A program made the position numbers and the translations under genes. This document shows positions 1,827 through 42,238 of a DNA stretch of 64,000 nucleotides, in pieces (the stretch's first letter is position 1; every line of letters starts with the position of its first letter). The notes beneath the pieces are model-generated. The model was not told where the DNA came from. It did not search any database and saw only the letters and a program-made list of their open reading frames with translations. The stretch spans positions 18,354,001 to 18,418,000 of the forward strand of contig NC_087251.1 in the NCBI RefSeq assembly GCF_037042905.1, read 5' to 3'. The DNA is from Lytechinus pictus. Its lineage: Eukaryota.

Positions 1827-2050
1827 TACGGAGCTCCTAAGGCATTTTAGGTGACATGACTTGTTTTTCTCAGGAATTATCAACTCCTTCCTTCGATTTA
1901 TAAGACATTCCCCATGACTTATTATTCGTTTCCCTTGACTTACAACTCGTTTCCTCGACTTTTCTCTATAAGTCGAGGAACGATTAGATTTTAAAAAAAA
2001 TAATAATAATAAATAAAATAAAAATGTCTTGTTACCTTTGTGGTTCCGTT
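1827..2050. mobile_element. Degenerate small MITE-like element with internal ~21-bp repeats (possibly IS3EU-related)
   Basis: Left end TACGGAGCTCCTAAGG vs right-end revcomp AACGGAACCACAAAGG. Internal degenerate ...TGACTT... units. No clear TSD. Confidence 0.25.
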
Positions 2051-3469
2051 TGCGACAGTGGCTTATAAGGCAAAATAAATTGAGGAGCCAGGCATGGTTC
2101 ATATTATATGGGACAACACTTCTAAAAAGCCGCGAGTGAGCGAAGCAAGCGAGCAAAACTTTGAACTTTTTTAAAACAAACACATAGTTTTGTGATATAT
2201 TTTGACACAATATTTATGCATGATAATTTTGTTTCACCCCTTTTCATTTCCTTTTATTCTTGTTCGCCTTTTTCTTGATCTTTAAGCTTTTCTGTCTGTT
2301 GTTTGTTTGTACACAAGTGATGTGTATTTGCTTGTGTACATACAAAATTGGTTCGTGGACGGTGTATTCCGTGTGGATAGGAGATATTACTCAACCAACT
2401 TACATTGTGATGTGTCTAATATAGCCAGAAATGTCGTGATGATAAAGAGGAAGAACATCATCACCAATCCAGCAAAACACCATATCTTAGATGTTCTACG
2501 AGAAGAAAAAATATGCCAAACTCGTATAATAAAATGAAACAATCTCCCTTTTACACAAATAAACATGATAACCGAAATTATTTTTTTAGATAATGCATGC
2601 CCGGAACAATAATCAACCACTATGAAATAATGTACATTTAATTTATAAACTTTCCAGTGGCTTTCCAAGAGCTGGAAAATAATTTCTTGATTATTAGTGT
2701 CTGATTTTAATCAATTCTAAATCCACAATTATTCATTAAAGCGATACAATACAATTTGTATTATCTAACAATGCTCTTGATTTATTCATCTAAATGACTC
2801 TGTACATAATTTTATAATATTGCAAATATACCTTGTTGGGAAGAAGAGTGAAAGGAATAGGAAGAAAATGTATGGAGTGAAGTTTCCATAGGCGACATAT
2901 AGGGTGAAGTTGTCCTTGAAATCCACGCTGTCACTAACATTAGCAAATTTGTGATCTGTAAAATACTAAGAAAATGAAAAGAAGGAACGTAATTACGTAT
3001 TGAAGGGATTATAGAATCCCCTTTTTGAAAACACCCGACACAATCATGAATGAAAACCACCTCCCCTATATTAGACTTTTTTTTATATTGGGAGGTCAAT
3101 TTTTTGTCTAATTGCTAAACTCCTAACATCTCGGCATCACCATTCCAATTATTTTTCTTTTAAATAATAAATCATTAAATTTGATGATTATCATCAAAGA
3201 CTGAACAGAAAAATAAATAAATCAAATCAATTAAAAAATCAATTCGAAATATCAAGTAACCAACATAATATATGAAACGACAGATGATGTTTTTAACGAA
3301 ATTTTGTTTAAATAATATATTCAGACTTACTTTATCTTTCAAACTTGCATCATGATTGATGTAAGTCGATCATGTATCGGATGTAATCTCTCCCCTTCTT
3401 TGTAATAGGCATATTCTTCATTTATCACTATAATCGGTTTATTTATTTATCTATTTATTTTCTTTCTTT

Positions 3470-3492
3470 CTATCTATCTATCTATCTATCTA

Positions 3493-3539
<47 letters not shown>

Positions 3540-3540
3540 A

Positions 3541-3633
<93 letters not shown>

Positions 3634-3707
3634 CTATCTATCTATCTATCTATCTGTCTGTCTGTCTGTCTGTCCGTCTATCTATCTATCTATCTATCTA
3701 TCTATAT
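3470..3707. repeat. (TATC)n / (TGTC)n microsatellite
   Basis: Directly visible tetranucleotide array. Confidence 0.97.
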
Positions 3708-3804
3708 CTCCCCGTATGAACAGACTACAAGACTATTCATCTATTCATCTATGTCTGTATGTCTGTTTTTATAACATATACCTGTACATTGCCATTATAG
3801 AGAC

Positions 3805-5232
3805 CACTGGCGTAAATCCGTGTTGATGGGCGGGGGGGATGACTGAAATATTTTGGCATTTTTTTGCAATCATGTTTTTAGATATGCAAGGAATTGTCAT
3901 TGATATGTCCACAGTGGCGTACCGTGGGTCACGGCATTGGGGGGGGGGGGGCACCAGCAAAATTTTTTAATGACTGAGTGAGTGACCTAATAGAGACATT
4001 TTAAGGACAATGTCATTAAACGGATATGTATCTCACTCATCAAATAATGCGAGCGCGAAGCGCGAGCTGAATTTTTTTTATATTCACACCTAAAAAGGGA
4101 CATTATAATCAAATGTGTATAGGCCTAATCATGATAGGTACCTGTCTCGCTTAACAATGCGAGCGCGAAGCGCGAGCTGAAAACTTAGATAATTCAGACC
4201 TGAAGTGGGGCATTCTAAGTTTTCTTTGTAGGAATTAACCAGGACCATACGTATTTCATTAACCAAATGATGCGAGCGCGAAGCGCGAGCTGAAAATTTT
4301 TGATATTCAGATCAGAAGAAGGGACATTTTAAGGACTGATTTTAGGAATTCATGAAAAGCAGACATATCTCACCAATCCATGAAAAATGCGAACGTAATC
4401 ACGGACAGGAAATGTTTCATATATATACGAAGACCTTAACATGGGGCAATCACTTTTGAGTCATGAAAAAAAAGCATATGTCACTACATAAAACAATGAT
4501 AACTCAAGTGCTAGGAAATATATTTGGTTTATATTGACTTGAAAACGGGATGTTTTGGTACAACAGGATTATATATCTCGTTAAACAGACAATGCGAGCA
4601 CCGGGAACAATTGAGACGTAGGCCCTGGGCAAATTATGTTTCATAAAGTTATGATAAAAATGTTTCTTATGTAATGTAACTTAACATAATTATAATATAA
4701 TATAACATTATAATGAACAATATTTTCTTCTTTCCCACTACGTTTCTCTTCCTTTCTCCCTCTTTTCTCCTTTTTCCCATTTCCCCGTTTTTTTTTTTTT
4801 TGGTCAGCCGATGGGGGGGATGTGCCCCCCATGTCCCCCGTAGTTACGCCACTGTATGTCCATATGGCAAATACCCCTCCAATATTATTATGTTTTTTAC
4901 CCCATGATGGTTTAATGGTTTATTAGAGATTACATTAAAAAAATTTGACATTCCATCTTAATCCCTTCCCAAAGACCCCAACATTGATGAATTGGAAGTA
5001 TTTCGTTTGGAAATGGTGAACTGGCTCTTTATTTGCATTTTATGATTCAATAATATTATTTTATTTGTTAAGCGGTATTTTTGGAAGAATTTTCACCAAT
5101 AAAACAATTATCTCTTGTGATTTTTTTTTCATTTCTTTCGTAAAAGGTGGGGGGATGTTTGTACAGGCCATCCCCCCCTCCTCGAAAAAAGGGGGGATAT
5201 ATCCCCCCATCCCCCCGGGATTTACGCCAGTG
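3805..5232. mobile_element. Non-autonomous hAT-like element (outer, host of a nested element)
   Basis: TIR CACTGGCGTAAATCC ... GGATTTACGCCAGTG. 8-bp flanks ATAGAGAC / ATAAAGAC (7/8 match). Poly-G/C subterminal tracts. Confidence 0.85.
3912..4854. mobile_element. Non-autonomous hAT-like element (inner, nested)
   Basis: TIR CAGTGGCGTA ... TACGCCACTG. Perfect 8-bp TSD TATGTCCA (3904-3911, 4855-4862). Internal repeats containing GCGAGCGCGAAGCGCGAGC. Confidence 0.92.
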
Positions 5233-5359
5233 ATAAAGACAGTAAATATATCCCATGCAAAAACTGCATTTACATTTTAAATTTAATATAAATTATTGGG
5301 ACTTTACGGCGTAAGACAACAGTGGATTGTTTTATTGATAAAAACAAATTGTTTGAACA

Positions 5360-5508
5360 ATAATTTATACAAAAATTGTATTTTTTCAGAGAGAAATATT
5401 GCTCACACATTCCAACTCCACTGAACTTTATCTTTACATAATTTATACAAAAATTATATTTTTTCAGAGAGAAATTGCTCACACATTCCAACTCCACTGA
5501 ACTTTATC
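5360..5508. repeat. Tandem duplication of ~77 bp
   Basis: ATAATTTATACAAAAATT...CACACATTCCAACTCCACTGAACTTTATCT occurs twice in tandem. Confidence 0.9.
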
Positions 5509-5635
5509 TCTACAATATGCTTACAGCGGTACAATAATAAGAAGGAACAATGAATGATTCAAAATTGCTCAACTCATGTCACGGTATTTAGCCAGTTACA
5601 ATTGGTACTAACCCCAATTCACATAAAAGTCAGAA

Positions 5636-5831
5636 CACTCTAAAAACACTGAGTAAAATCTTACCCAATGTTGGGTAGAAAGGGATCATACATCTTTGCT
5701 TTGTATTTTCCCCCATATTTGGCTATTTCAACGCAACACTGCGTAAAATTTACAAAATTTGGGGTATCTTTTTACTCAACCAACATGCATGTTCCCATTT
5801 TACCCAATATTGGGTAAACCTTTTTAGAGTG
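5636..5831. mobile_element. CACTA/EnSpm-like MITE
   Basis: TIR CACTCTAAAAA ... TTTTTAGAGTG. 2-bp AA flanks on both sides. Internal TTACCCAA..TTGGGTA palindromes. Confidence 0.7.
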
Positions 5832-11406: not shown

Positions 11407-12108
11407 TTCATGATCGCGTGTAAAGGCCTTAACAAAACACAGAGATACGATCTTACGTATACGTAAGCTCCCGAAGGGAGCTAGAGAGGGAACTCTTTCC
11501 GCGCGTTTTTATTTCCCATAGGTTTTGTACATAGCCAACATGGCTGCCGGTGTAGCGGCGGATTCGGTTCCACCGGCGGATACCGTATCCGCCGGCAGAT
11601 ATCGTTCTAAATGGCCGATATCGTTTTTAATCGGAACCATATCCGCCGGGTTTGCGCGGCTTGAAGTTTGCAGATTTGGTTCCTCGGCGGATTTGGTTCT
11701 ATTGACTATACGTGTAATTCAGACAACCTCGGCAGCGCGCGCATGCGCGGCTCTGGCAATGTCGATCGCAATGGGGGGGGGGGGGGGGGGGGATTTTCGT
11801 CCGCCTTTAGTGAATTTTTATTCAGGGGCGGATCCATACAGCGTTCGACATAGGGCTCGATGGGGGTGAGGATTAATAGGAGAAATAATGTCTCGATATT
11901 TCATGTATTACATAGACCTGGCACATACGCCAAAACTTTGCTATTTATTATGATCAGATTTTGATGAAATTTCATATCATTTTTTTTTTTTTTTAATTTG
12001 TATACTATTTTCAGTCCGCAGTATGCATCGATCTCTTTAACTGTGCTTTTACACACCAATGTTAGTGTCAGTTTGCCAGACTGTTTGGCGAAAATGTGCA
12101 CCCCCATA

Positions 12109-13453
12109 CAGTGCGTATTAAAAAAACGGGACAGTTTTGAAAAGTCTATAAAAAATTGTTTCAAATTATGATATCTATATTTTGATGTTAATAGATGCTC
12201 TGAAATCTTATCTTTGAAATGCCATTTAAAAAAAAATTGTTCATGCTTGAGCGAACACGGGACGTTTTTGTCGGGGGTTCAAAGAGAGGCTTGCGCCAAA
12301 ATGGCAGAAATTAGAAATTTGATGATCAGACTTTTAACTAATCAGCAGGCTTCCTTTTTACCTTTTCATTATCTTCGCCATGATTTTCGAATTATGCTGT
12401 CAAATTTTATTTACAAATGTATTTATATACTTGAATTATTTTATTTTTTCATTAAAACTTCTTTAACCTTTGAATTTTCCTTCATAAGTAAGAAAAGAAG
12501 ACTTTTGTCAACCCAAGGAAGAAGATTTGCGTTATTAATCATGTTAATTGGGAGAACTTGTAGTTATTCAAATCGTATTTTATTAGGTGAAAAAAATTAC
12601 GTTATGGTACCTTTATAATAGAAAGACATGAATCCTATTTTCAAGGGGTCATTGATTCCTTGACCAAGTTTAATTAAGTGCTTGACAGGGCAAACAGGAA
12701 AGGATTCATGTCTTTCAATGGCAATGTATTGAGTAAATTTTGAAGGAGCTAGATATGGCAGATCGGATAAAATGTATTTAAACAGTTGTGAGCGAGCAAG
12801 CAAAAATTTCCACTTTTTTTAATATCCAATTCTGTGATAGATTTTGACAAAATATTTAAAAAATAAATCATATTTCACTTTCTATCTTTCCTTGTATTCC
12901 CTTTCCACTTTTTTATTGGGGGGGGGGGGTAACACCCCGAGCCCCCACCCATCTGTATGCCACTGTTCAAAAGCACCATAACCTTTGTAGCACACAATCA
13001 CAATGGAAGGATTAAAAAAATACACGCTTTCCCATATACTTCGGTTTAAAAATTTTGTTTTTGCTTATAGAATGAATATTGAAAGCTAAAAGAGAACATA
13101 TTAAAAAGAAACAACAGAACAATTCAGGCAAATAAACAGATTCGAAAATGAATTTTAACAGCATAATTCGAAAATTATGTCAAAGATAATTAAAAGGTTA
13201 AAAGGAAGTCTGCTAAATAGCAAGAAGTCCGATCATCATATTTATCATGTTATGCCATTTTGGCGCAAGATTCCTTTTTAACCCCAAACTAAAACATTCC
13301 GTGTTCGCTCAAGCATGAACAAAACTATTTTTTAATGGCATTTGAAAGATAAGACCTCAGAGCACCTATTAACACCAATATATAGATGTCATAATTTGAA
13401 ACAAAAATTTTATAGACTTTTCAAATCTGTCCCGTTTTTTTCGATACGCACTG
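12109..13453. mobile_element. Tc1/mariner-like MITE with ~240-bp TIRs
   Basis: CAGTGCGTATTAAAAAAACGGGACAG ... CTGTCCCGTTTTTTTCGATACGCACTG with TA on both flanks. Arms ~12109-12345 and ~13215-13453. Confidence 0.9.
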
Positions 13454-13656
13454 TATAGGCATATTGGTTTTTGAAACTACAAATGTTTAGAAAAAATTCA
13501 ACAAATTAAAACTTCATATTTCCAAATAAATGATGCAAATAAGTGTATGAAAATATGTTTTGCTGTTAACTCATATTATTGCTTGTAGAATGCTAATTTT
13601 GGGTGAAAACATAAATTTGACATTTTTAACAAAAATCCCAAAAAAAATAATGTTCT

Positions 13657-15997: not shown

Positions 15998-17892
15998 CAA
16001 GTCTTCATAAATTATGTAGGGTTATTAAGTTGCATTTATTGTTATCTTCATTTAAAAAAATGTGAAATGGGCTACCACTGCAATAATATATAAATAGACT
16101 ATATTTCAAAAATAGATTGAATTCTAACCACAGTGACAGTAGACAAATCAAATTTTGTTAATGATTCGCTAATGTATTGATTGGGGAAGGCACTCTTTAG
16201 GATTCTGGCATTGTGTCCCACCCCCCCCCCCCCTTATGAGGAGTGCTCTCACATCAGTAGACTATTTCTTGTCAGCAAATTTGAAAGGAATTTACCAATT
16301 TTTTTGAGTGACAAACTTTTGTGGAAGAAAATAAATGAATATCAAAGGTTTTTATGCTCTTTTATGGAATATTAACTATAGGCTCATCGAGATCCTTTGA
16401 ATGAAATTTTAACAAACATTGTACAATGTAGAAAAATGTACTTAATCCTATTTTTGTACATTTATATACCCACCCCATACTACCCTTACCCAGTAACAGC
16501 CCTTTTTAGCTATGCATTGCCTTCATTTTTTTAAATACAATTTAATGCTTGGTAGATGCTAATTATTATTTTTATGTTAATGTCAATGTTTGAGAAAATG
16601 GATTCCTTAATAAACATGTTAATTTTGAATTGAATTTTTTTATTTTGGTAATTTTCATTTATCAATTAATTGTGATGATGTATTGCTTCTGAGCTGTTAT
16701 GCACAAATGGCACAAGATGTTGCACTGTACTGAAATGTGATGATGCCACTGTTACATGAGATCAAACAGCAGTCAATTAAAATATTATTCAAGAAAAATA
16801 AGGATAAGAGTGGGAAAGAAAGTAAATGACAGGAGAATTATTTGCTTGTATGCATATAGTTATGTCAGTTTCTGAGAGAGAGAGAGACAGACAGAAAGAG
16901 AGAGAGATGGGGGGGGGGTGAAAGTTCAGTTTGTTTTGAAAGAAGCAATTATAAGACCTTACTGTTCATAACGGGGGGGGGGGCTAATTATTTCTCCAAA
17001 TTTTTTAAACCTGCATATAAAATTCATTTTTTCTTTCCAAATGAAAATTACACCAGATTCATTTTCAGTTGAAAATAAAAAAAGAAATAGCCTACGATCG
17101 GTTTGCTCTCTTGCCTATTTAATTTTGAGAACCCCCTCCCCCCTAAAATATGGTATATACCTAGGTCATGATTATTGATGTTTGACATAGAAGTCGCCAT
17201 TTAAAATTAAGTGCTCCGAGGACTGCTATTCATAATAGGACTTATATTGGAGACTACAATTATGGAAAAGAATTTGATTTGTTATTATCTTTGTTTATAT
17301 TATGAAAAGAGGTTCATTTCGTTTTCTGCAATAAAAAGAAAAAAGGGTTCCAGAAACTTAAAGAGATCTCATCGTATATGGCAACATTTTCTTTGGGAAC
17401 CTCCTCTGTAATATTTTTTAGCAAAGATCCTGGCCATTTGCAGCTAAAACAAAGCAAAGATACAGTAATAATCGTAACAAGCAATAACAAATAGATCATT
17501 AAAATAGATGAATAATAAAACTCTGAGGAGGAACAAAACGAATGATCTGACATGATGTAATCACTGACAGACACCATAAACGATATTAATCAGGTCGCGC
17601 ATTATGCTAAGTAGTGACAAAATACTAATTTACATATTTTTACGCTATGCGCGAAGGACGTTCCGTGACCACGCCTTCATTTCGCTGGTGTACCAAAACA
17701 GTGGCGGTGTCCATAGGCTTGTATACGAAAAATGGGAGCAGTGTGCACTTTTGACCCTCCGAAATTTTCTTCAATTCTGACCGGATGCAGAAGCGGAGTT
17801 TCACCCCCCTGTAACAAAAGTAGCATAGCGCCATCTCTTGTCAGTAACATTATATTGATGTCATTTGCTGTAAACATCAACGATTTTCAGAT

Positions 17893-20800
17893 TAGTAGAG
17901 CGGATTAGCTCCAAAAATCACAACAATTGTGCAAATTTTGACTAAAGCATAAAACTTTCACAAGTATTAGTATATGCCATAAGATTTATTTTAAAGATGG
18001 GAGGTAAATTTATAAATGCCATTTTCGACCGTTGCCATGGCAACGGATTAATTTCTCCAAAACAACATACATTCCCATATAAATGGTAAATAAACATGAT
18101 ATAGATGACCAAAATGATAATTTTCAGGCTCCCGATTGAAAACATATGAAATTTAGAAATATTCAAGATCATAAAGATAGTTCCAATTGGTCCGTTGCCA
18201 TGGCAACAGCTTGTTTTTCCCCTGAAAAATAAACATTTTGATTAAAAAAAGTTGTAGAATATGATATATCTTTAATTTCCCCTAATTTTACAGTGCTTAA
18301 CAAAGATATTTTGGTTGCTAAATGTGTAAATTGCATCTCAAGCCATTGCCATGGCAACCAAATAACATCTAATTCACAAAAATAACATGGTTGTCAAGAC
18401 AATGGATAGGTGGAAAATACAATTGGAATTGACTTAATATGTATGCTTAAGTTTTGACCCCCTCATTTGAACAAAAAATACAAAATTGTTCTGCAGGAGT
18501 TCTTTATAAAGATAAAATATTATGTTGCTTTTGAAATGCTTGAATTGAATTTAAAAAGGAACAATTTTACAAAGGGCCCGTTGCCATGGCAACAGCTTAT
18601 TTCCCTCTAGAAAAGTAAAAATATTGATAAAAATGTAGAATACGTGTACGGTATGATCATCATTCCATTTCCCCTAATTTCAAGGTACTAATCGAGATAT
18701 GTTTGTGACTAAATTTATAAATATAACATCTTAAGCCATTGCCATGGCAACCAAATAACATCTAATTTTTTTTAAAAGTGGATGATAAGGTTAAAAACAG
18801 GTGAAAGATACAATGAATATTAACTTAATGTGCATTCGTAAGGTCTGACCTACTCAACTAATTTAGGGGAAAATAATACAGTCAGTGTTCTGCATGAACT
18901 AATTAAAATAATAAACATTGATGTTGCCTTGGTAATACTTGAATTCAACGATAAATATCAATGTTCCAAATGGCCTGTTGCCATAGCAACGGATCATTTA
19001 CCCAAGAACAGTAGCAGTTTTGATTTTTTAAAAGGACTGTATAATCTGATTTTTCTTTCATTTCCCTTAACTTTAGGGTAAGAATAGATATGTTTGCTGT
19101 TAACATGCAAATAACATATAAATCCATTGTCATGGCAACCAAGTAACATCTAATTTGAAAATAAAATATAACATGGTTGACATGATAATGGACAGGTGGA
19201 AAATGCAATTTATAACAATTAACTCAAGGTTTCACCCAGTCATTTAATTTTGAACAAAGATTACAATGTTTCGCATTAGTTCATTAGAATGATGAAATTT
19301 GAAGTAGCCTTGGTAATGCTTGAAGTTAATGATAAATATCAATGTTGCAAATGGGCCGTTGCCATGGCAACGACTCTTTTTTCCCAAGAAAAGCACTAAA
19401 TTTGATCGAAAAACAGTTTAAAATCTGCATTTTGTCATAAATTTCCCCTAATTTTAGGATGCAAAGCATAGATATGTTTGCTGTTGATGTACAAATAACT
19501 TCAGCCATTGCCATGACAACCAAATAACATCAATTTCAGTGGCTTAATTTGGTTTCTATGTTTTAAGGGTGAAGTAGTACATTGGGACTAGTTACAAGGA
19601 CAGCCAGTGGTCTGACGTGTCCAAAACCCTAAGACGGCTTCCAAAAATGGAGTTTGAAATGGCTGTTGATATATAAATGGACATATAGGTCATTTCCTAT
19701 CAATCTGAGATATATGATTTTGGTGTCTAGACCATGGTTTCAATGGTCAAATAATACACTATCACAAGTTGAATGGACAGTCAGTTGTCCATTATATAAA
19801 AAAATCCAAGATGGCTTCCAAAAATGGAGTCTAAAATTGCTGTTGCTGCATTAAAAAAGTAGTTTGTTTGATATCCTGGAATATGTTTATGTCATGATTA
19901 AATGGGTCAAATAATACATTAGGACAAGTAACAAGGACAGTCAGTGGTCAAGTTTGTCCAAAAATCCAAGGTGGCTTCCAAAAATGGAATAGCTCCTGTT
20001 ACTAACAAATGGACATATTTCGTGTAATATATGTCAGTAAATACATCATGTACATTTGAACAAGTTACAAGGACAGTCCGTAATCCAGTGTGTCTAAACA
20101 TCCAAGATGGCTTCCGACAATTGGAGTCTAATCGGAGTCTGTTACTTCAAAATTGACATAGTTCATTTAAAATCCACCAAGAAAAAATTATTTTGGTGTT
20201 CACACTTTGGTTTCAAGGTTTTAAAAAATATGTTTAGACTGGTTACAATGATATCCAGTTGTCCATTTTTTCCTAAAGAAATGATGGGAATTTTCAAAAA
20301 GTAACAATTTTCTGATATATGCAGAAATTAAAATGCGTACTAGCAGATGATACTTGATAATTATTTGTCATCAAATTTCGAGCCAAGTATTATGCTAAAA
20401 CAGTCAGACAAAGCAAAATTTTAATGATTTCCATGTAAAAGTTGATTTACTGTATTTACATTGATTAGGAGCTCAAGACCATGTCAACTCCTCAGATAGA
20501 CTTTTGATTTTTATTTATCAACGCCTATTATCCCCTTATATATTGATATGATGAACGGCCTTAAAGCACAAATCACACCAAGACACTTTCTTCAAAATGG
20601 CAGCCTGCGAATACTTTGAACGAAATTGACCAGCCTCGAAATGAGAGTTTCGGGAATTTATTTGAGCCCAAAAAAGTCTGATATGATTTTTGTAGGTCTT
20701 ATTTCGATGCCATGTATAATGAAATAATATGGTGCTTATCATTTAGCATATTTATGTTCAGCACCCTCAAATAAGGGACAAGGAAATAAAATAAACATAT

Positions 20801-23062
20801 TATATTTATCAAAATTTGTACTTTTAAGGGACCATTGGCAACATTGATATTTATCATTATGTTCAAGCATTACCAAATCAACATATCGTAAGAACTCATG
20901 CATAACACTTAATGTGATTTTAAAATTAAAAGAGTAGGTCAAACCTTACGCATATTAAGTTAATTTTATTGTATTTTCCACCTGTCCATTATCTTGTCAG
21001 CCATGTTATTTTTTGGGTAAATTATATGTTATTTTATTGCCATGGTAATGCCTTAAGATGTTATTTATACATTAACCAACAGAGATGTACGTGTATGTTT
21101 GGCACCCTAAACTTAGTAGAATTGAATGAAAAATAAGATTCTACAAGGTATTTTTTTTTATCAAAGATGGTATTTTAGGGGGAATAAAATGACCCGTTGC
21201 CATGGGAACAGAACACACATTTGTCAACATTGATATCAATAAATTCAAGCATTACCAAGGCAACATCAGTTTTTATCATGCTAATGAACTCATGCGGAAC
21301 ACTTACTGTATTTTTTGTTCAAAACTTAATGACTGGTCAAAGTCAAACCTTATGTCGATTAAGTAAATCTTTACTTTACATTCCACCTGTCCATTATCAT
21401 TACAACTGTGTTAGTTTGTTTTAAAAATTATATCTTAATTGGTTGCCATGGCAATGGCTGAAGATGTTATTTATTTATTAACAGCAAGCATATATATGCT
21501 TAGCTCCCTAAAATTGGGGCAAATGAAATAAAAATCAGATTTTACAATTTTTTTGTTTATCAAACATGATACTTTTCTGGGGGGAATGAGCTGTTGCCAT
21601 GGCAACGGGACATTTGAAACACTAATATTTATCATTAAATTCAAGTATTACCAAGGCAACATAATTTTATTATTCTGATGAACTCATACAGAACTCTTAC
21701 TGAAATTTTTGTTCGAAATTAAATGACCGGCCAAACCTTTCGCATATTGAGTTATTTGTATTTGTATTTTCCACCTGTCCAAAATCTTGTCATCCAAATC
21801 ATTATTTTTTAGTATTAGATATTATCTGGTTGCCATGGCAATAGCTTCAGATGTTATTTATACATTTTGCATCAAACATATCGATGTTTAGCACACAAAG
21901 ATTAGGGGAAATGCAAGAAAAATCAGATTCTACAGTCCTTTTTTAATCAAAACTGATACTAAATGATCTGTTGCTATGGCAACAGGCCATTTTGAATATT
22001 GATATTTATTGTTGAATTCAAGTATTACCAAGGCAACATCAATGTTTATCATTCTAATTTAGTTCATGCAGAACACTGACTGTATTATTTTCCCCTAAAT
22101 TAATTGAGTAGGTCAGACCTTACGAATGCACATTAAGTTAATATTCATTGTATCTTTCACCTGTTTTTAACCTTATCATCCACTTTTTAAAAAAATTAGA
22201 TGTTATTTGGTTGCCATGGCAATGGCTTAAGATATTATATTTATAAAATTTAGTCACAAACATATCTCGATTAGTACCTTGAAATTAGGGAAAATGGAAT
22301 GATGATCTTACTGTACATGTATTTTACATTTTTATCAATATTTTTACTTTTCTAGAGGGAAATAAGATGTTGCCATGGCAACGGGTCCTTTGCAAAATTG
22401 TTTTTTTTTTTATTTAATTCAAGCTTTACCAAGGCAACATTAATTTTTTATCTTTATAAAGAACTCCTGCAGAACACTTTCTATATTTTTTGTTCAAATG
22501 AGGGGGTCAAATCTTAAGCATACATATTAAGTTAATTTCACTTGTATTTTCCACCTGTCCATTGTCTTGTCAAACATGTTATTTTTGTAAATTAGATGTT
22601 ATTTGGTTGCCATGGCAATGGCTTGAGATGTAATTTACACATTTAGCAACCAAAATATCTTCGATAAGCACTGTAAAGTTAGGGGAAATTAAAGATAAAT
22701 CATATTCTACAATGTTTTTTTAATCAAAATTTTTACTTTTCTGGGGAAAAACAAGCCGTTGCCATGGCAACGGACCAATTGGAACTTTCTTGATGATCTT
22801 GAATATTTCTAAATTTCATATGTATTCAATTGGGAGCCTGAAAATTATCATTTTGTTCATCTATATCATGTTTATTTACCATTTACATGGGAATGCATGT
22901 TATTTTGGAGAAATTAATCCGTTGCCATGGTAACGGCCGAAAATGGCATTTATAAATTTACCTCCCATCTTTAAAATAAATCTTACGGCATATACTAATA
23001 CTTGTGAAAGTTTCATGCTTTAGTCATAATTTGCACAATTGTTCGGCTAAGCCGCTCTACTA
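17893..23062. mobile_element. 5.2-kb non-autonomous foldback DNA transposon, Academ-like, with modular long TIRs
   Basis: Termini TAGTAGAGCGG ... CCGCTCTACTA with 3-bp TSD GAT (17890-17892, 23063-23065). Arms ~17893-19540 and ~20940-23062 are built from ~390-bp subunits. No long ORF. Confidence 0.9.
19580..20270. repeat. Degenerate internal tandem repeat in the foldback spacer
   Basis: Recurrent ACAAGGACAG(T/C)C and CCAAGATGGCTTCCAAAAATGG at ~19630, 19806, 19965 and 20101. Confidence 0.75.
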
Positions 23063-23543
23063 GATAGCGGTTTCATGCAAAAAACAATAATGTACTAACA
23101 AATATTACTAGAAGGGTTGAAAGCCGGTTCACGTAGTTGCATATTTCTTAAAATTTGCTTAACCAGTCTTAAATTGGACATTGATGGAATATCATTCACA
23201 TTCTTGTATAGCACCAGCTATGGTTTAAGACACTATTATAATAGTGTTACATCTGGGGACCCAGTCGTTGACCAAAATTCAAAGATCCGTACAATTTCTG
23301 TTTCTGTTTCTGTTTATGGTAACTCCCGTAGGAACTCGACAGGACAGCATATTTGCTGGTAAACGCCAAGCTGGTTAAACCAATTACCTAGGAAACATTT
23401 TACGTCTAGGTTATTCAGTCATAGTGGCTGACCTTTCAACTTGAGTTTGAAATCTTAGATTTATTGCAACTCTGTGGTAGACGGGGCCAAGTGAGTTTTT
23501 TTTACCTTGAGAAAGGGGGCCTGCTTATATATTTGATTTTCCT

Positions 23544-25110: not shown

Positions 25111-26004
25111 AATCACGTTTGTGCTTACATTTTTCATACAAGGTTGATTTAAACAAAATAAATGTACCCCGGGTACTTAGATATATATTCATTTAATTAT
25201 TTTTGCAATGGACCAGTGTAAAGTAACACATCTACAGGATAGGACCTATTTTATTCAAACAAAATTATTACACCGGCCCGTATTTGATTAATTTGTTGTA
25301 TATTCACGATACAAACAACATGAAATTACTGACTAACTAATGTAATTTTTTTAATTTAATGGAGGATGGGAATCGACGCTGGCGCAGCGGTTATCTTTTT
25401 TTTTAAATTCTTATTTTCGACATTTTTGCCGGATAGTGCATTGGTTTACGTACAAAACCGATTCCGGATACTCGGCCGTGGAGTTCATGTTGTCGCAATG
25501 CTGATGACAACGGTATTGAAGGTCAATTTCAGGTAAAACTTAGTGAAAAGTAAGAAAAATATCAGCTATAAAGAATACAATGTGTTGTTCTAGGCTCTGT
25601 CGTCTGTTGAAGAGTTTCCTTTCACTCGGGCAGCTCTCAGACGAGTTAAATCCCGCGTTCCGTGTCAGTGACAGGAGCCTCCGGCTCATCAGCGACAGCG
25701 GGTCGCTCGCCGCCGAAGGTGCTGGCCGCCCGACTCGCGCCGTGCCACTCCCAGACTCGGGCCTGGCAGAGGCAGAGACAAGTATGGCAGTGTATCCTAT
25801 TGCCGGACACCTTTATTTCAGTGCTTTAAAAATGACAACTAGAGGAAATACAATCAAGAAAAATTCACACTTGCTATTCCAAATATTATGAAAATTATGA
25901 ATATGATAAAATTATTTTATATTTACCAACCATTTTCTTTGCATCGCACTTGCTGCGTACTACGAAGCCCCAAACCGGACATTTTTGACAACGAAAAAAA
26001 AAAA

Positions 26005-26276
26005 ATTATTACGTACGTACGTGGTATTATTACGTACGTACGTAGTATTATTACGTACGTACGTAGTAATTATTACGTACGTACGTGGTATTATTACGTA
26101 CGTACGTAGTATTACGTACGTGGTATTATTACGTACGTACGTGGTATTATTACGTGCGTACGTGGTATTATTACGTACGTACGTAGTAATTATTACGTAC
26201 GTACGTAGTATTTATTACGTACGTACGTAGTATTATTACGTATGTACGTAGTATTTATTACGTACGTACGTAATAA
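26005..26276. repeat. 21-bp minisatellite GTATTATTACGTACGTACGTA (left TIR)
   Basis: Directly visible array with palindromic TACGTACGTACGTA core. Confidence 0.97.
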
Positions 26277-26425
26277 GCACCTCGCCGAACCTGTCGAGGA
26301 ACCTGTATATAGAGTTTGGATTAATATATGGATGTCAAATTTTTCCATTCATTTATTTCAATTTCCCCGCCTTTTTCCTGGGTGTGACTACATATTCACA
26401 TTACAGCACATTGAATGATCGCTAT

Positions 26426-28885
26426 ATGTAGGTATGTGTGAATACGGGCGCATCGCGAACGCTGGTTTTGGCTGCACGGTTTTCGCGCGGGTTTTGCTGC
26501 AAGTGGCATCGCCTCTGTCTGGGCGGCTCATCGAAAATGGGGTTTCATGCGCATGCGCACATAGTTGATGCAATCTCGTGCCTCGATACAGACAGTTGAA
26601 GACTTGCTCTTTCTGTACATATAAGTTTCAATGTGGATACTCGCCTGTGAAGTGTGGATATCGGAGCTTGAAAGTTCATCAAATTTTTGGATGCGCAAAT
26701 GATCGAAATTTTTTAATGGTAAGTAGAACTGCAATCCAATTATGTATCTTGACCTTTTAAAAATGTATTCAAATTGAAAAAAAAACTATAAAAAAAATGT
26801 TCTCGTGTGGAGCAGTCCAGATATCAGAGGCGCGAGCTACCCTTGTCACAACCGGTCTCTCGCCAGATGAGCTCCCCGATGCGGTGGGCTCCCGACGGTC
26901 TTTCGGCAGTCGAGCTACCGGTACCCGATGCGGAGGGCTTGGTGACGGGAGTGGTCGATAGTGAGTCGTTCATGCTGGATTGAACTGGATCTAAATTGTT
27001 CACTTGATAATATTGTGCCTTTTTCTGAAAATGTCTGTCATTACCGTAGATTGTTATTCTGATATTGATTTAAATATATACATTTTGTCACAAAAACATT
27101 CTTTCCTCCTAAGGTTATAGAATCATATTTTATCATTTGGAAACTGGATTCTTTTGGGAGTGGAATATTAATGTTGACTTGACTTATTAAATTAAAATGC
27201 AAAATCTATAGTGTTTCTTTTTTTCTTTTGTAGAAAAAAAAAAACATTTTGAAACTTTTCAATCATGTTTCATTATTTTGAGACTGGATTTGCTTTTGAA
27301 AGGAGAATATCATAAATGTTGACTTTTTAATTAAAATGCAAAAATTATGTTTATTTTTTAGTTTCTTTTTTTTTTAAATATATTTTTTTAAGTTTCTTTT
27401 TTAAATTATTGTATTGTTTATTTTTTTCATATTTCATTATTTGGAGACTGGATTTGCTTTTGAAAGGAGAATATCTTAAATGTTGATTTGTTTTTTTTAA
27501 ATGCACGAACTAGATGTTGTTTATTTTATGTTGTAATTTTTTTCATTCTTGTAAGAAAATACATGAAAACTCAGAGGAAAGAATATTTCATTTCCAGATG
27601 GGTCTGAGTCCTGTATTTATGTTTATTATTAATTGTACTATTTATTTTTTTGTTCACTTTTCTTTTTTTAGGGATGCAGGTGGGGGTTGTATTTTGAAAT
27701 GGAAAATGGGGATGGGATTGGTACAAGTTTTTGTTTCTCTTGTTTTCAGTGCTTGTTTGGAGCTTTGATGTCTGTTTTGTTGTTGTTGTTTAAAGCTTTG
27801 TTATATATTTTTGCTGGTTGTTTTTTGCTTTGTTTTGAAAGAAATAGACCACTCTTTTCCTTTTCTTTTGGATTCGACTAATAATTTGAATTTATTTTTC
27901 TTTAAAAAGAGAGCTCAAACAGGGCTTTTGTAATACAATGTATGTATACAAATCTAAGAAATTGACAACTGATACAATATATTAAAACTTCATGTTCGTC
28001 CTTCTTGATACTTGAAATAAATTGCATACAATTCTACATACATATTTTACACTCAGCTGCTCATTCCTTCTAAAAATGTAATCACATGTCCATTGTCTCT
28101 CAAATCAAAAGCTACATATTATAACAAACTGTTGAAACAATAGAATACATAAGGAAGTGGTGAAACAATAAAATACATCAGAAAAAACACACATATTTTT
28201 ATTTGGTCATACAAAGTACAAAATAATTTTTTTCTTATGTAAAAAAGGACCCCCGTACAAACACATACAAAATTACAATACTAAGTTGAAAAAGAGCTTG
28301 TAATTTATATCAGAAAAACAAAGAAATACATTAGAAATTACAAAAACAATACTTAAGACAAATTCATTAGGAAATTATCTACATGATGCTGTTTTGATGC
28401 CAACTAAATTATATGAATTATCTATCATAATCACCTTCATTTGGCAAAAAAAGAGGCAAGTAATTGTGATTTTCTGTTATTTGCATAATTAATTAGGATT
28501 AATTAGAAGAAATTATTTTACACATAATAAGAAAAATTACTAGATGAATTGATACACATCAATTAAGCATTCTCTCACCTTTCCATTGATACCTAAATTA
28601 CTTCATAGGGCTCAAAAACAAAGAAGTTAGAGCCTGTTGAAGGCTTGGGTTCAAAATGGTCACAAAATGGTCACAAAAATCGATTCTGTACTCCATTGAC
28701 TTTACATTAAGACAATGACCACAAATTTGGATGAATATGTGCGACTTAAACTGGAATAACTTTATAATTTCTTTATGAAAACTAAAGTTCTTGGTATCAT
28801 TTTAAAGGTCTTTTTAAGAGCTTTCAAGTGATACCAAATTTATTCATATTTGATGATTTTCATTTTTTTTGTCACATACCTACTA
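26426..28885. mobile_element. 2.46-kb element inserted in the left arm of the IS3EU-like element
   Basis: Short TIR GTAGGTATGTG (26428) / CACATACCTAC (ends 28883), with TAT(AT) on both flanks. The uninterrupted site GATCGCTATGTGAG is retained (revcomp) at ~32486-32499. Confidence 0.85.
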
Positions 28886-30219
28886 TATGTGAGTTTGCTG
28901 GACGATATGGGGAGCGGGGGGCGGGGGTCACCTCTCCCACGTGTGATCGAGCTTTGTAGTCAGTTTGTGGCGTGGCAAGAATCAAAATTAACTATATTGT
29001 ACGGTCAAAGAAACATCGTCATAAAAATCCAGGGGCCAGCATAGGCAGATCCACTACGTGGTAAAGGGGCCGCCCCTCCTCCATTGGCGACGCGAAAAGA
29101 GGGGGAAAGAAAGAAAAAAAAGGAGAGGGAAGGGAAAGGAAAGAGGCAAATAAGAATAGGGAGACGAGTGAATTAAAATAAGGTGAGGGGAAAACTTTGA
29201 AAATAAAAAAATCTTGATCATGCAGCTACATAGTATATATTTTTTTTGCTCTTGCTCCGCGCTCTCGTTGCCTGTTATGAGATAGGCCTACATATCTTGC
29301 TCAACAGGCTGAAATGGAGATAAACAAAACATATTCAGCTCAGACATCGAGATTTATTTATTTTGTGTAATGTATTTTTAAGTGCTCTGTATTTTTTTAA
29401 TGGTCTGCATCTCGAAATATCTCAGCTTGAGCTTCGCCCACGCGCATTATTCATGTGGGAAAATATATCCGTTTCATGAAAATACGACTAGAGAATATAG
29501 GCCTATCCTATTTTGGGATTTAAATTTCAAACTTTGCGCACGCATCAATCTGCCTATATCGTGATCATAATTATTTTTTAAAAGTGCTTAGAATGTCCAG
29601 TTTTTATGTCCGAATATCATTTTTTTGCTTTTTTTCGGGCACTTTAATCTTTAAAAGGGCACCGACAAAAGTTTAAGATTTAGATAGCAGTATATAACTT
29701 AACAATTTATTGATGCGAGCGGAAAAAGTTTGAGATCGAGATCTAAAAACTGAATATTAGATTTTTTAATTATGAAAAGGATAGTTATCTTCCTTTATGA
29801 ATAATGCGAGCGCGAAGGAATACAAAATATGCAACTAAACAATAATTGATGCGGCGAGCGCAAAGCACGAGCGGAAAAAGTGTGAAATCTAAGAAAACTC
29901 TATTTTGTTACTATATTTATTTAACCTAGAAACGGGCCCTCTAAGCACATTTTGTCATCATATGAAAAGGATAACTATTATTAGTTCCTCTACCTAAGGG
30001 CGAGCTGAAAATATTGTTGATATTCCGATCTGAAAAAAGAGACAATAAGGATTATGAATTCATAAAAAGGATTTTTTTTCATTTAATAATAGGCCAAATG
30101 AGAACGCGAAATTTTGGAATTCATACAGAAGTATTCTCACTAACCAAAATGCGAGCGCGTAGTGCTAGCTGATATATTTTCGCAATCAGACCTGAACAAA
30201 AGGGATTTATTTAGCATTT

Positions 30220-30628
30220 AATTATTACGTACGTACGTAGTATTTATTACGTACGTACGTAGTATTTATTACGTACGTACGTAGTATTATCACGTACGTA
30301 CGTAGTATTATTACGTACGTACGTAATATTTATCACGTACGTACGTAGTATTATCACGTAAGTACGTAGTATTATCACGTACGTACGTAGTATTATTACG
30401 TACGTACGTAATATTTATCACGTACGTACGTAGTATTATCACGTACGTACGTAGTATTATCACGTACGTACCTAATATTTATCACGTACGTACGTAGTTT
30501 TATCACGTACGTACGTAGTAGTATCACGTACGTACGTAGTATTATTACGTACGTACGTAATATTTATCACGTACGTACGTAGTATTTATTACGTACGTAC
30601 GTAGTATTTATTACATACGTACGTAATA
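30220..30628. repeat. Central 21/22-bp ACGT minisatellite
   Basis: Same unit as 26005-26276 with ATCACGTAC variants, followed by the same TAATAAGCACCTCG.CGAACCTG tag. Confidence 0.97.
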
Positions 30629-32644
30629 AGCACCTCGTCGAACCTGTAATCTTAACAGATCAATGACAGTCGGACTAGCTAGACTACTTTTGATGGATGT
30701 CAATCTTTCGATTTCCACACCTTTTGTGACTATAGATCTGCTGGACACTTAAGGGGGGTCACCCCTCCCATAATAGTGTTGGCATTATAATATTGATACA
30801 TTATGTGATCGAGCTAAGTCAGTTTGTGGAGTAACAAGAACATAAAAATTAGCATAATGTACGTTCATAGGAACATTGCTATTATCACCAACATCCTAAA
30901 AGATTTTTTTTTTAAGTGCAGGGGTCAGCAAAGGCGGATCCAAGAGAAAAGGACAGCGCCCCCCCCCCCTTCCCCAGTATTGGCGGCGCAATAAGAAAAC
31001 TTCGGGACTCAAAAAGAAAAAAAAAGGAAAGGAGAGGGTAAAAAGAAATAATGAAGACGGGTCACGAGTGAATAAAATGAGGGGGGCGGTCGAAGACTTT
31101 GAAAAAGTAATCTTTCATGTCAATTTATAAAGGTTGATAAGGAGCTTAAAATATTCAATTTTAAGTCAGTACACAAACATATTCCATTTCAGACATAGAG
31201 CATTCATTATTTTGTCTGATATGCAATCGCATTATTTGAAACGTGAACTAGGTCCTTCTTCGTGTATTCCATAAAGTTCTCAAGATGGTCTATTGTTCAG
31301 GTCTTATTGTAAAAAAATATCAACTAGCACTGCGAGCTCGTGTTTTGGTTAGTGAGAATACTTCTGTATGAATTCCAAAATTTCGCGTTCTCATTTGGCC
31401 TGTCATTAAATTAAAAACTAGGTTAAAAAAATATATAGTAACAAAATAGAGTATCCCGTTTTCTTAAATCTCACACTTTTTCCGCTCGTGCTTTGCGCTC
31501 GCCGCATCAATTATTGTTTAGTTGCATTATTTGTATTCCTTCGTGCTCGCATTATTCATAAAGGAAGATAACCATCCTTTTCATAATTAAAAATATAATA
31601 TTCAGTTTTTAGATCTCGATCTCAAACTATTTCCGCTCGCATCAATAAGTTGTTTAGTTATACTGCTATCTAAATCTTAAACTTTTGTCGGTGCCCTTTT
31701 AAAGATTAAAGTGCCCTAGAAAAAAAATGCAAAAAATTGATATTCGGACCTAAAAACTGGACATTCTAAGCACCTTTTTTAAAATAATTATGAACATGAT
31801 ATAGGCACATTGATGCGAGCGCAAAGTTTGAAATTTAAATCCCGAAATAGGATAGGCCTATATATACTCTAGTCATATTTTCATGAAACGGATATATTTT
31901 CCCACATGAATAATGCGCGTGGGCGAAGCTCAAGCTGAGATATTTTGAGATGCAGACCATGCATTAACAAAAAATACAGAGCACTTAAAAATCAATTTGT
32001 AAATTACACAAAATAAATAAAAGCTCGATGTCCGAGCTGAATATGTTTTGTCTATCTCCATTTCAGCCTGTTGAGCAAGATATTTATGTAGGCCTATCTC
32101 ATAACAGGCAACGAGAGCGCGGAGCAAGAGCACAAATGTTATATACTGTAGCTGCATGATCAAGATTTTTTTATTTTCAAAGTTTTCCCCTCACCTTATT
32201 TTCACTCACTCGTCTCCCTATTCTTATTTGCCTCTTTCCTTTCCCTTCCCTCTCCTTTTTTTTCTTTCTTTCCCCCTCTTTTCGCGTCGCCAATGGAGGA
32301 GGGGCGGCCCCTTTACCACGTAGTGGATCTGCCTATATGCTGGCCCCTGGATTTTTATGACGATGTTTGTTTGACCGTACAATATAGTTAATTTTGATTC
32401 TTGCCACGCCACAAACTGACTACAAAGCTCGATCACACGTGGGAGAGTTGGCCCCCGCCCCCCACTCCCCATATCGTCCAGCAAACTCACATAGCGATCA
32501 TTCAATGTGCTGTAATGTGAATATGTAGTCACACCCAGGAGTCACATAAGGCGGGGAAATCGAAATAAATGAATGGAAAAATTTGACATCCATATATTAA
32601 TCCAAACTCTATATACAGGTTCCTCGACAGGTTCGGCGAGGTGC

Positions 32645-32903
32645 TTATTACGTACGTACGTAATAAATACTACGTACGTACGTAATAATACTACGTACGT
32701 ACGTAATAAATACTACGTACGTACGTAATAATTACTACGTACGTACGTAATAATACCACGTACGCACGTAATAATTACTACGTACGTACGTAATAATACT
32801 ACGTACGTACGTAATAATACCACGTACGTACGTAATAATTGCTACGTACGTACGTAATAATACTACGTACGTACGTAATAATACCACGTACGTACGTAAT
32901 AAT
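32645..32903. repeat. 21-bp ACGT minisatellite (right TIR)
   Basis: Reverse complement of the left array. Confidence 0.97.
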
Positions 32904-33336
32904 TTTTTTTTTTTCGTTGTAAAAAATGTCCGGTTTGGGGCTTCGTAGCGTACCCCTCCACGAAAAACATTATTATTTTCGTGCGCGACAAATTACATCA
33001 TGATTCCGGACGCGCGCCGGACGGGTAAAGATATCCTTGATTATAATGATGTAAGAGCAAATTTGTATGATTTTTTTCTTCTTACATCATATCATGAGTA
33101 AATTCTAAGTATTATTTGCTTTTTATATCGAATCTGAGCAGATGTTGGTAATGAATTCGTGTTTGATAACTTATTTTATTTTGTCTTGTTAGCTGCATGT
33201 TCCATGGCACTTTCCATAATATGCTCGCGTTCACGAGTATCGTGACGCTCATCAAGTTCTATCGATGCGCTGCCGATCGACGGCTCTACTCACGGTAAAC
33301 CTCGCGCACGGGTACCTTGCGAACTAGCCGTTGAAT

Positions 33337-38212: not shown

Positions 38213-38947
38213 CCTACATCAAGAGATGTTCGTGCTGGCTCCACTCCACTTCACTACCGCTACACCTACACCTACAAAAACTTCAAGGTCCAATACTCGC
38301 TCTGATACTCTGAGTGGCAAAGGTGGGGGAAAAATGCATATTTATTGTAAAAATCCTACACCAAAACTAGCTTAAAAAGAATAAATGGAATTAAGTATTT
38401 TTGGTTACAAAAGTGATATTTTAATGAATTTTTTAAATGTGTGTTGTATATTGCATATATCTACATGTCAGATTCCCTGTACAGGCAGGGTGGTGCAGAC
38501 CAGAGTTTTCTCCTTTTCATAAAGAACTTGGAACGATGGGTCCCTTTGATATTTGGTGTTATTTGGCAAGATGTTTATCATGCTTGTCAAGCAACTTTCA
38601 GAGTCAACATCATGTAAGGGGATTTGCCTTGTGTAAACAATGCCAGGAAAAATAATTTTCCAGTTTCCTGCTTGCCAATGGTATCAAAATTGTGAAAAGA
38701 CAATATGGCTAGTATTACAATTGTTTTGGCCAAATAATTATTTAAATCTTTATAACTCTCTCTTTGTGTAGGTCTATTGTTATTTAGTAAACCCACTTTG
38801 GGCATACATGAAGTTCTGTATTTTTTGTGTGTCATATTTTTATTTTCCAGGTTACCAAGTTCAACGTACAGTATATGGTTACACATTGACTTTTTATGAG
38901 CCATGGATCACAGTGTGTGAGAATCGAGCAACGAAGACAGTGCAGAG

Positions 38948-39638
38948 ATGGAAGTCGCACAAAGAAACAATGTTTGGACTACCACCACAAACCCCCAGGG
39001 TAAATCCATACACAATACAGTATTGTATTCCTCTTTCATTACTTGTCTTCTTCTCTTTGGTCTCGGGTCAGCCGGGAATGTGAATCCAAGACCTGAACTG
39101 TACGTGCCTAACTATAAGTACTATCACAATGTATCATCAATCGGAACTTTCATCACCGACCTGGTCGTGAAACATCCTACCTACTTTCGTTTAGACCTGA
39201 ACTTCAAGTCCCGCTCCAGTATTCCCCAGTACGTACTGCATATGACTAATTTTTCAAGCTCAAGGACATCGTATGGGAGCCATGGAGTGTCAAACATTAA
39301 GCCCCGCCTCCTACTGTCATTCGGGGAACATGCAAGGGAGTTCTTCCCGGTTGAAAGTATGATACATCTTATGAAAAGAATCACCAGAGGGTTACATGCA
39401 CCACTTAACAGCCCAGAGGATCAGTTCACCAAACATGTTCTTTCTCAGTTAGATATCTACATTATTGTCATGGCTAATCCAGATGGTAGACAGCATATTG
39501 AAAGGACGGGTAACTACTGCTGGAGGGGCACCAGCACTGGTGTGGACTTGGACAGGAACTTTGCTTGGAATTTTGGAGGTCATGGGAGCTCAGGTGATCC
39601 TACTGATGAGGAGTTCAGAGGACCTTTTCCTCAGTCAG
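38948..39638 (+). CDS. M14 zinc carboxypeptidase, coding exon 1
   Basis: ATG in GAGATGG context. Hydrophobic signal (VLYSSFITCLLLFGLGSAG), LLLSFGEHARE (HxxE), MANPDG, WRG..GVDLDRNF, FRGPFPQS. Donor CAG|GTACAG, phase 1. Confidence 0.95.
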
Positions 39639-40561
39639 GTACAGTACAGTACAACCTATCACAGTAGCATTTACAAACCTACCCTACACTGACCAGTTCT
39701 TGGTAGTACTGTTTTTAGTTCCTTGCTGTATTCAGTTACATTGTAGTAACAAATTTCCTTTATGGACCCGGGGGACACTTCTATTGACAAATTATGGATA
39801 TAATGCATGTCCAAAAGACGTGTGAAAAGGGAATCTATTTCAAGGTACAGGATGTTACATAAATGTATGTAACGTAATTAAGGTGTCAAAAACAATTGGG
39901 TAATTAATTTCTGAACTGAACTGAATTTATTACCAAATCATGTCAAAATACATTGATAGTGATACAGGGTAAATTTTCATATGATATATACTTCATTGGT
40001 ATTAAAAGGACTCCACGGAAATAGCAAGTACTGCTAGTGGGACGTGGAGCCCCTATCCTACGACATACATAATCATAATTAATAGCATGAAATAACGTTT
40101 AAATAGTAAGTTTACAAATTATGCTCTTCGGAAAATAACATATCTGGTGTATAAAACAAATGAATAGGTCTAGCATAATAGGGTAAAAGCAAGAAATGCA
40201 TACAAATGAATTAAAACATGTACCTGTGATTACAGTATCTGATTTACAAGAGTAAAAAAAAGATAGAATGTGTTTCGAGTAGGATATATTTTTGTGCCAA
40301 GATGACGTGTTTAGGGTCCAATATACTCCCTAGCCAATTTACTAGTGATATGTGACCGATACTCTTTGCTAGTGAAATGCACAGGATGACTGAAATGGTA
40401 AAATTATATGGGAGTACTTGCTAAGGGTTACATTTTGTACCCAATTATTTAATAGGGTGGGGTTCTGTAGCCAAAACAAGTTTGTTAAATGCAGGGTTTT
40501 GTACCCAATACTTGTTATGGGTAAAGTTTAACAAATTCACACTACTATATTCTGTATTCTA

Positions 40562-42136: not shown

Positions 42137-42238
42137 AACCCGAAGGAAGAGTTTACTTAGAGCTGTCAAACACACATCACTTTGATGCTTTCATCTCCTT
42201 CCACTCTGGAATACAGCAAATATATATTCCTTTTGCTG
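42137..42238 (+). CDS. M14 carboxypeptidase, coding exon 2
   Basis: ACACAG| ... G|GTGAGT. Reads (E)PEGRVYLELSNTHHFDAFISFHSGIQQIYIPFA, completing the SEPE motif and giving the third Zn ligand (SFHS). Confidence 0.93.

Follow-up and report, generated by a model that had tools for sequence, protein, structure and literature searches.

Sea urchin genomes hold foldback elements with long modular inverted repeats, among them the TU elements of Strongylocentrotus purpuratus. Words repeated inside the ends of DNA transposons can serve the element's own protein or a protein of the host. In Galileo, the repeats of the long terminal inverted repeats (TIRs) are described as sites that the transposase's THAP domain binds, according to the cited portion of that report (PMC3688188). 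In lancelet ProtoRAG, the portion cited describes binding of the host factor YY1 to GCCATCTTG in the TIRs, where it aids targeting of the TIRs by the transposase, and also repression of ProtoRAG transcription and transposition by YY1 (PMC7481187). Here, we describe an element at positions 17893 to 23062 of a 64,000-nucleotide stretch of Lytechinus pictus DNA (assembly GCF_037042905.1, contig NC_087251.1, positions 18,354,001 to 18,418,000; “the window” is this whole stretch). Its ends resemble those of the AcademX lineage, and its arms carry arrays of X-boxes, the sites recognized by RFX proteins. We propose, with a probability of roughly 0.6, that host RFX replaced YY1 as the accessory factor of this element, by analogy with the part that YY1 plays for ProtoRAG.

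Results

The arms of the element are filled with X-box sites. A scan of the whole window found 19 sites within two mismatches of GTTGCCATGGCAAC, all of them inside the element; 100 shuffles of the window gave a mean of 0.15 such sites and a maximum of 2. Adding the TTACCAAGGCAAC type brings the count to 28 X-box-like sites: two terminal, nine of type A, nine of type B, and eight of type C. Each arm has one terminal box, and types A, B, and C recur in each subunit of 377 to 399 bp (A to B, 141 to 160; B to C, 167 to 191; C to A, 54 to 56). A reading of this unit as a dimer of ~195-bp halves was weak, its score being reached by 40, 19, and 7 of 300 shuffles. An earlier note on this DNA, made from the sequence alone, had listed seven perfect copies of GTTGCCATGGCAAC, and all seven lie where it put them. 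Its near-perfect variants are real sites as well, but two of them begin one position later than it gave (18738 and 22606).

The earlier note's identification of this 14-mer with the RFX X-box consensus agrees with the motifs given in the cited portions of two reports (PMC3414849, PMC5449588). An X-box is given in PMC3414849 as GTNRCC-N0-3-RGYAAC or a single strong RGYAAC half-site. Type A is a perfect palindrome, equal to the palindromic consensus, whereas types B and C have a stable asymmetry, with departures from A that fall at fixed positions in both arms. One perfect RGYAAC half-site is retained in 24 of the 28 sites, and the second half is looser in all three box types; a half-site with a looser partner is also the pattern described for RFX targets in the cited portion of PMC3414849. 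A pyrimidine precedes and a purine follows the box in 11 of 11 terminal and A boxes, which agrees with the RFX4 motif CGTTGCCATGGCAACG (PMC5449588, as far as cited) and is counted for RFX. Type C is 90% conserved, yet it has no ATGG/CCAT core of the kind found in the YY1 word, which is likewise counted for RFX.

The element is a foldback transposon, as the earlier note had supposed. Its arms (17922 to 19530 and 21432 to 23043) are 87% identical in inverted orientation, and long TIRs made of tandem subunits flank a non-coding middle. No stop-free frame of 100 amino acids occurs between 17893 and 23062, so the element encodes no protein, and Rfam gave no match across the window.

The boxes are better conserved than the rest of the subunit. 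Among six non-redundant subunits, 582 of 630 box positions are identical (92%), compared with 3519 of 4919 elsewhere (72%). None of 304 other 14-column windows equals the level of any box, and none of 20,000 random window triplets reaches the box level (null 0.72 ± 0.03). This comparison had been set beforehand, and its positive outcome bears out the earlier note's impression that the motif is better kept than its surroundings. The contrast is weaker in the three left-arm subunits alone, where the level of boxes A and B is reached by 3 windows and that of box C by 22. The excess is present at G/C columns and at A/T columns. A comparison of the mirror arms, which is not independent of the subunit test, gives 160 of 168 for boxes versus 1272 of 1453 for the rest (p 0.002). 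The non-palindromic word GACAGGTGGAA, which we take to be a CAGGTG E-box-type word, is kept as well as the boxes (155 of 165); CAGGTG itself occurs exactly seven times within the element.

Box conservation is older than this insertion. Subunits of one arm are 66 to 76% identical among themselves, while cross-arm pairs reach 92% (L1/R1) and 96% (L2/R2). This pattern indicates that the subunits diverged by ~30% before the arms were copied, so that the conservation of the boxes predates the insertion studied here. Two read variants fall in boxes, both toward the type-C consensus, at full depth and in three contig sets (2 of 20 rows inside the element, among 40 of 870 variant rows listed); the C boxes of this copy are thus degraded at two positions where other copies hold the consensus base. 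Because the arms share subunit types, and because other copies have the consensus base where this copy's C boxes deviate, we conclude that selection acted on the boxes within the mobile lineage while the subunits diverged. The boxes therefore most likely served the element and not this locus.

Several copies of the element exist, since contig depth on the arms exceeds that on the left flank: summed depths, which are not a copy number, are 89 to 515 on the arms versus 23 to 40 over 16500 to 17567 (contigs of two runs). Among 15 of 142 joints listed, none spans the whole element as an empty site would. RNA over the arm bins is low and on both strands (depth 0.2 to 6; one ribosomal RNA–depleted run, of which about 6 in 100 were read), and the left flank from 16500 to 17834 has low RNA in one direction (depth 0.2 to 3.4). 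Beyond the right end, a high-copy repeat fragment at 23175 to 23441 has heavy RNA read cover (depth 355 and 145 per direction). The internal array at 19545 to 20290 is more abundant in reads than the arms are and is therefore probably derived from another repeat family.

The ends of the element are of Academ type. AcademX elements make target-site duplications (TSDs) of 3 or 4 bp, as given in the cited portion of PMC10045372, and the element has a 3-bp duplication, GAT, on both sides (one locus). AcademH was set aside, as its TSD of 9 or 10 bp does not agree with the 3-bp duplication, and a TA-duplication reading of the ends gave way to the 3-bp GAT duplication with TAG/CTA ends. The first ~60 nt match autonomous AcademX-type elements and bivalve Academ-1 families. 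For comparison we took a curated bivalve library (PMC10294476, supplement file 24) that includes 100 Academ families, using the first 400 nt of every entry. TAG opens 12 of the 13 Academ starts shown, and three have the TAGTRGAGCRG...AAGCATGAAA end in common with the element. With blastn, the element ends matched loci L005, L001, L003, and L004 (E 4e-7 to 5e-6). A scan of metagenome contigs with the Academ end pattern gave 13 loci, and the end matches include the autonomous L005 and L008. Because of its TAG...CTA ends, its 3-bp TSD, and the ~60 nt shared with autonomous Academ elements, we assign the element on sequence grounds to the non-autonomous DNA transposons of AcademX type.

The relatives supply proteins that the element itself does not encode. 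L005 is a full-length element of 6391 bp with a 1329–amino acid open reading frame (ORF), and L007 has a 1506–amino acid ORF (1161 to 5678). Proteins of relatives with the same ends contain the motifs DN.DH, DQP.Y, D[QH]AHEQ, DGAA, EEADTR, DTD.V, and GCD..S.F...GKK plus a Cys cluster; in proteins of the L005 and L007 type, we take these to represent a DDE core, an XPG-like nuclease, and a C-terminal Cys-rich finger. Pfam gave weak DUF6589 and TCR matches alone for these transposases. Neither L005 nor L012, both full-length relatives, has a 3-bp duplication in the metagenome contigs. The distance from the terminus to the AAGCATRAAA word differs by 10 nt between the two ends of the element (nt 53 versus 43), and the same asymmetry is found in relatives (L005, 53/43; L012, 52/43). 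The terminus and the AAGCATRAAA or AAGCATGAAA word are likely candidates for transposase recognition signals.

The X-box lies where related ends carry a YY1 word. Among 15 related ends (14 distinct, as L003 and L004 are one end; first 400 nt examined), the YY1-type word AA[AG]ATGGC occurs in 10 and the X-box in none. The YY1 cores of relatives lie 66 to 103 nt from the GCAT word, and the core of the element's first X-box lies 87 to 90 nt from it, directly after a leftover GCCATTTT; this unit has its mirror in the right arm (22921 to 22947). The foldback-array design recurs in L013, where both arms are arrays of ~169-bp YY1 units. Because of this equal position and of the shared architecture of L013, the X-box array can be read as this family's version of a cassette that is usually YY1 in Academ ends.

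Other words replace YY1 at further ends. TGACCT and TAATTA words take the place of the YY1 cassette in L006 and L009, and L001, L003, and L004 have TAATTA alone among the words counted. In one of the 36 parts of the bivalve library, inspected by eye, 15 of 21 Academ ends contain AAGATGGC or AAAATGGC, with unlike termini, and several have octamer, TGACGTCA, or AGGTCA words. YY1 and RFX apart, we presume that these are POU-, ATF-, nuclear receptor–, and homeobox-type words. The full X-box 13-mer is absent from the first 400 nt of every library entry; parts of 9 or 10 letters match four times (one Kolobok, one TcMar, and two in other entries). The earlier note had considered the element the best candidate for an undescribed system in the window. 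Its 3-bp TSD and its relatives, which carry YY1 and other host-factor words at the equivalent place, make it one version of an end design general to Academ and not a stand-alone system.

X-box-like words also occur in an unrelated miniature inverted-repeat transposable element (MITE) at 51017 to 51171, whose inner arms hold ATGGCAAC and CCATGGTAAC, which we count for host RFX. This small palindromic element, presumably Harbinger-like, has GGGCCC-type ends, CTG on both sides, and a GATTGG word between the X-box-like words.

Features of the element and of related ends. Positions are those of the window, except in the last row, where they follow the locus names.
Feature	Position	Strand	Remark
Whole non-autonomous Academ-type foldback element	17893–23062		5170 bp, TAG...CTA
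Left TSD, GAT	17890–17892	+	Same trinucleotide at both element flanks
Right TSD, GAT	23063–23065	+	Same trinucleotide at both element flanks
Left (“long”) end	17893–17954	+	TAGTAGAGCGG terminus and AAGCATRAAA word from nt 53; common to 15 related ends
Right (“short”) end	23011–23062	-	TAGTAGAGCGG terminus; AAGCATGAAA word from nt 43
YY1-type word GCCATTTT, then first X-box (18031–18044) directly	18018–18044	+	84 nt from GCAT word
Left subunit array	18182–19540	+	3.5 units of ~390 bp
Left-array A boxes	18194, 18580, 18977, 19358		
Left-array B boxes	18345, 18738, 19126, 19507		
Left-array C boxes	18524, 18923, 19304		
Second conserved subunit word GACAGGTGGAA	18798–18803	+	Example copy
Internal array with YY1-like CAAGATGGCTTCC words	19545–20290	+	4–5 units, period 136–178
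Old nested MITE-like insertion	20297–20825		Imperfect inverted ends of 24 nt; TTAA next to one of them
Right subunit array	20826–22783	-	5 units
Right-array A boxes	22758, 22369, 21970, 21593, 21196		
Right-array B boxes	22606, 22210, 21829, 21442, 21036		
Right-array C boxes	22425, 22024, 21647, 21251, 20869		
Academ ends with TTTGACCTT and TAATTA words	L006 2073–2470; L009 10001–10400		No YY1 cassette

The nested insertion, presumably Kolobok-like, interrupts the right array immediately ahead of an A box. Elsewhere in the window, a second large foldback element (25960 to 32948), which we take to be IS3EU-like, has TACGAAGCCCC ends, the 6-bp direct repeat GCGTAC on both sides, TACG-type arrays, and a long inverted pair inside it (28886 to 32493). 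Another inverted-repeat element (12103 to 13459) has 414-nt arms that are 80% identical, each with a CAAAATGGC word. Exons of a zinc carboxypeptidase (M14) gene lie at 38921 to 43881; the exon tested matches a Lytechinus pictus protein at 100% identity and a Strongylocentrotus one at 92%. A 466–amino acid open frame on the minus strand (53108 to 54508) has no Pfam family and only two homologs, both unnamed (73% over the full length; 52% over 16%).

Discussion

Host RFX as an accessory factor would account for the build of these ends. The anatomy of the element, its Academ-type ends, the conservation of its boxes, and their positional equivalence with YY1 cassettes suggest that RFX binds the arms and acts as an accessory factor after a switch from YY1, possibly with a bias toward the germ line or ciliated cells. 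We envisage ends in three tiers. The TAGTRGAGCRG terminus and, at nt 43 or 53, the AAGCATGAAA word are shared with related families and would be transposase signals, and a cassette from ~84 nt further in matches a host transcription factor consensus, that of YY1 in most relatives. Here, this cassette is the RFX X-box, amplified to arrays in which strong or half sites follow one another at 55 to 190 bp. Host RFX along both arms would open or position nucleosomes and help to load and pair the ends, and in an autonomous parent it would drive or tune transposase transcription. The boxes would have been retained because copies that carried them mobilized more often. A wider version of this proposal is tentative and, in our view, rather doubtful: Academ would hand part of end recognition or activation to host factors (YY1, POU, ATF, nuclear receptor, or homeobox) via a swappable cassette that lies ~85 nt inward from an unchanging transposase signal, and the sea urchin family would have switched to RFX and amplified nucleosome-scale arrays, so that mobilization would be tied to cells rich in RFX, for instance those of the male germ line and of the ciliated embryo.

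The earlier note had named host RFX and the element's transposase as the two candidate binders, and both still stand. Binding by the family's own transposase, which we consider possible but clearly less probable than a role for host RFX, would require a winged helix that reads the RGYAAC dyad, by convergence or through distant kinship with RFX, with the arrays providing cooperative loading as in Galileo. Several observations lean this way or weigh against host RFX. Every A box is regularly phased, 83 to 100 nt from a GCATGA-like word, and the subunits may therefore repeat a transposase-binding module. The repeats of Galileo are a precedent. The strict RFX1 consensus is fitted by only 10 of the 28 sites, and the YY1 word and boxes A and B have the ATGGC core in common. 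A winged helix is predicted in L007 (residues 29 to 87 of a 127-residue model; predicted local distance difference test 91 to 98 by block), and comparison with 48,161 chains ranks RFX5 fourth (Z 6.7; root mean square deviation, rmsd, 2.8; 72 aligned) and RFX1 tenth (Z 6.4; rmsd 2.7; 68 aligned). A host factor also need not help the element, since YY1 suppresses ProtoRAG transposition. Furthermore, the cognate transposase or autonomous partner was not found in the metagenome, viral, and prokaryote scans: paired X-box and Academ-end patterns have no match in viral contigs, and the terminus with an X-box has none in prokaryote genomes. The lone paired-X-box match in prokaryote genomes, L014, was rejected as one stretch of bacterial coding region repeated across an assembly gap. 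The structural scores for RFX, however, are tied with domains of RNA polymerase III, condensin, MCM8, and Cdt1, and Z values below 8 are common. An RFX Pfam match is absent at E up to 1 from eight locus ORFs and from 30 of the 120 homologs listed, and the modeled L007 protein belongs to an element that has YY1 words and no X-boxes and is not the cognate transposase. The N terminus of L007 has two ZAD-like zinc modules by motif ahead of the predicted winged helix, the second of which matches the ZAD structures of M1BP and Grauzone (Z 6.2 to 6.3); Pfam names neither the ZAD-like domain nor the winged helix, and searches of the L007 transposase against solved structures by sequence, with Foldseek, and in the Atlas gave nothing significant. 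A transposase winged helix that is kin to the RFX domain and itself recognizes the X-box is the less likely reading, although the more striking one. We favor host RFX because the third word switches among host consensuses while the terminus and the AAGCATGAAA word stay constant, and we favor host proteins over one transposase domain because many exact consensus words of unrelated host factors occur.

Two further explanations are much less probable. The earlier note had also raised a mobile enhancer or factor sink, for example in ciliated or male germ cells, and the host could retain the array to serve ciliary or sperm genes, at this locus and at others, as an enhancer, insulator, or RFX sink. 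Twenty-eight sites in 5 kb would bind RFX heavily, and the left flank has its low one-direction RNA. We nevertheless regard this as very unlikely, as conservation was measured among paralogous subunits that had diverged by ~30% before arm copying and is hence older than this insertion, the C boxes are degraded in this copy and not in others, arm RNA is low and on both strands, and no ciliary gene was identified in the window, where small exons were not searched. Least likely of all is homogenization without selection by a protein, through gene conversion or template switching of short palindromes in the array. The perfect palindrome of type A and the exchange of sequence between arms that are 87% identical would suit such a process, but the stable asymmetry of B and C, the equal conservation of the non-palindromic GACAGGTGGAA, and the YY1 cassettes of relatives at the same position would not follow from it.

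None of the components is new by itself: Academ elements, foldback arrays, X-boxes, and a host factor within a TIR have all been known before. The element itself is an ordinary non-autonomous Academ. Among the papers that literature searches listed, titles and abstract openings mention no RFX sites in DNA transposon ends and no host-factor cassettes in Academ ends, although a prior description in the AcademH paper, Repbase, or Dfam is possible. Among the papers found, use of a host factor in the ends is shown for YY1 and ProtoRAG alone, as described in the cited portion of PMC7481187. If host RFX does serve the element, then Academ ends would form a natural series in which the core signal stays the same and the host-factor cassette varies, and one could test directly how host proteins help cut-and-paste elements to choose cell type and timing. 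Should the transposase be the binder, it would contain a winged helix with RFX specificity. The sea urchin is a model for ciliogenesis and gene regulatory networks, and each copy adds ~28 RFX sites to its genome. This load can distort the results of RFX chromatin immunoprecipitation, assays for transposase-accessible chromatin, and motif enrichment, and it is raw material for enhancer co-option.

The element shares features with several known systems. TU elements also combine a sea urchin host with long modular inverted repeats and differ, in a comparison by description alone, in their short outer-domain repeats and longer TSD. With the AcademX lineage, it shares TAG...CTA ends, a 3-bp TSD, and the first ~60 nt; it differs in being non-autonomous and in having X-box arrays where a YY1 cassette is usual. 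Its type A box equals the palindromic RFX consensus, and its B and C boxes keep one RGYAAC half-site; X-boxes usually occur once per promoter, according to the cited portions of PMC3414849 and PMC5449588, whereas here they form a phased array in a transposon. Like Galileo and other Foldback-type elements, it has long TIRs of tandem subunits with a repeated, here putative, protein-binding word; Galileo belongs to the P superfamily and its word is bound by its own THAP domain (PMC3688188, as far as cited), while the word here is a host-factor consensus. ProtoRAG, likewise a DNA transposon of a marine deuterostome, also has a host-factor consensus within its TIR. It belongs to another superfamily and has one YY1 site per TIR, and its factor affects end recognition, transcription, and transposition by experiment, as the cited portion of PMC7481187 reports; the element described here has 28 RFX-type sites, known from sequence.

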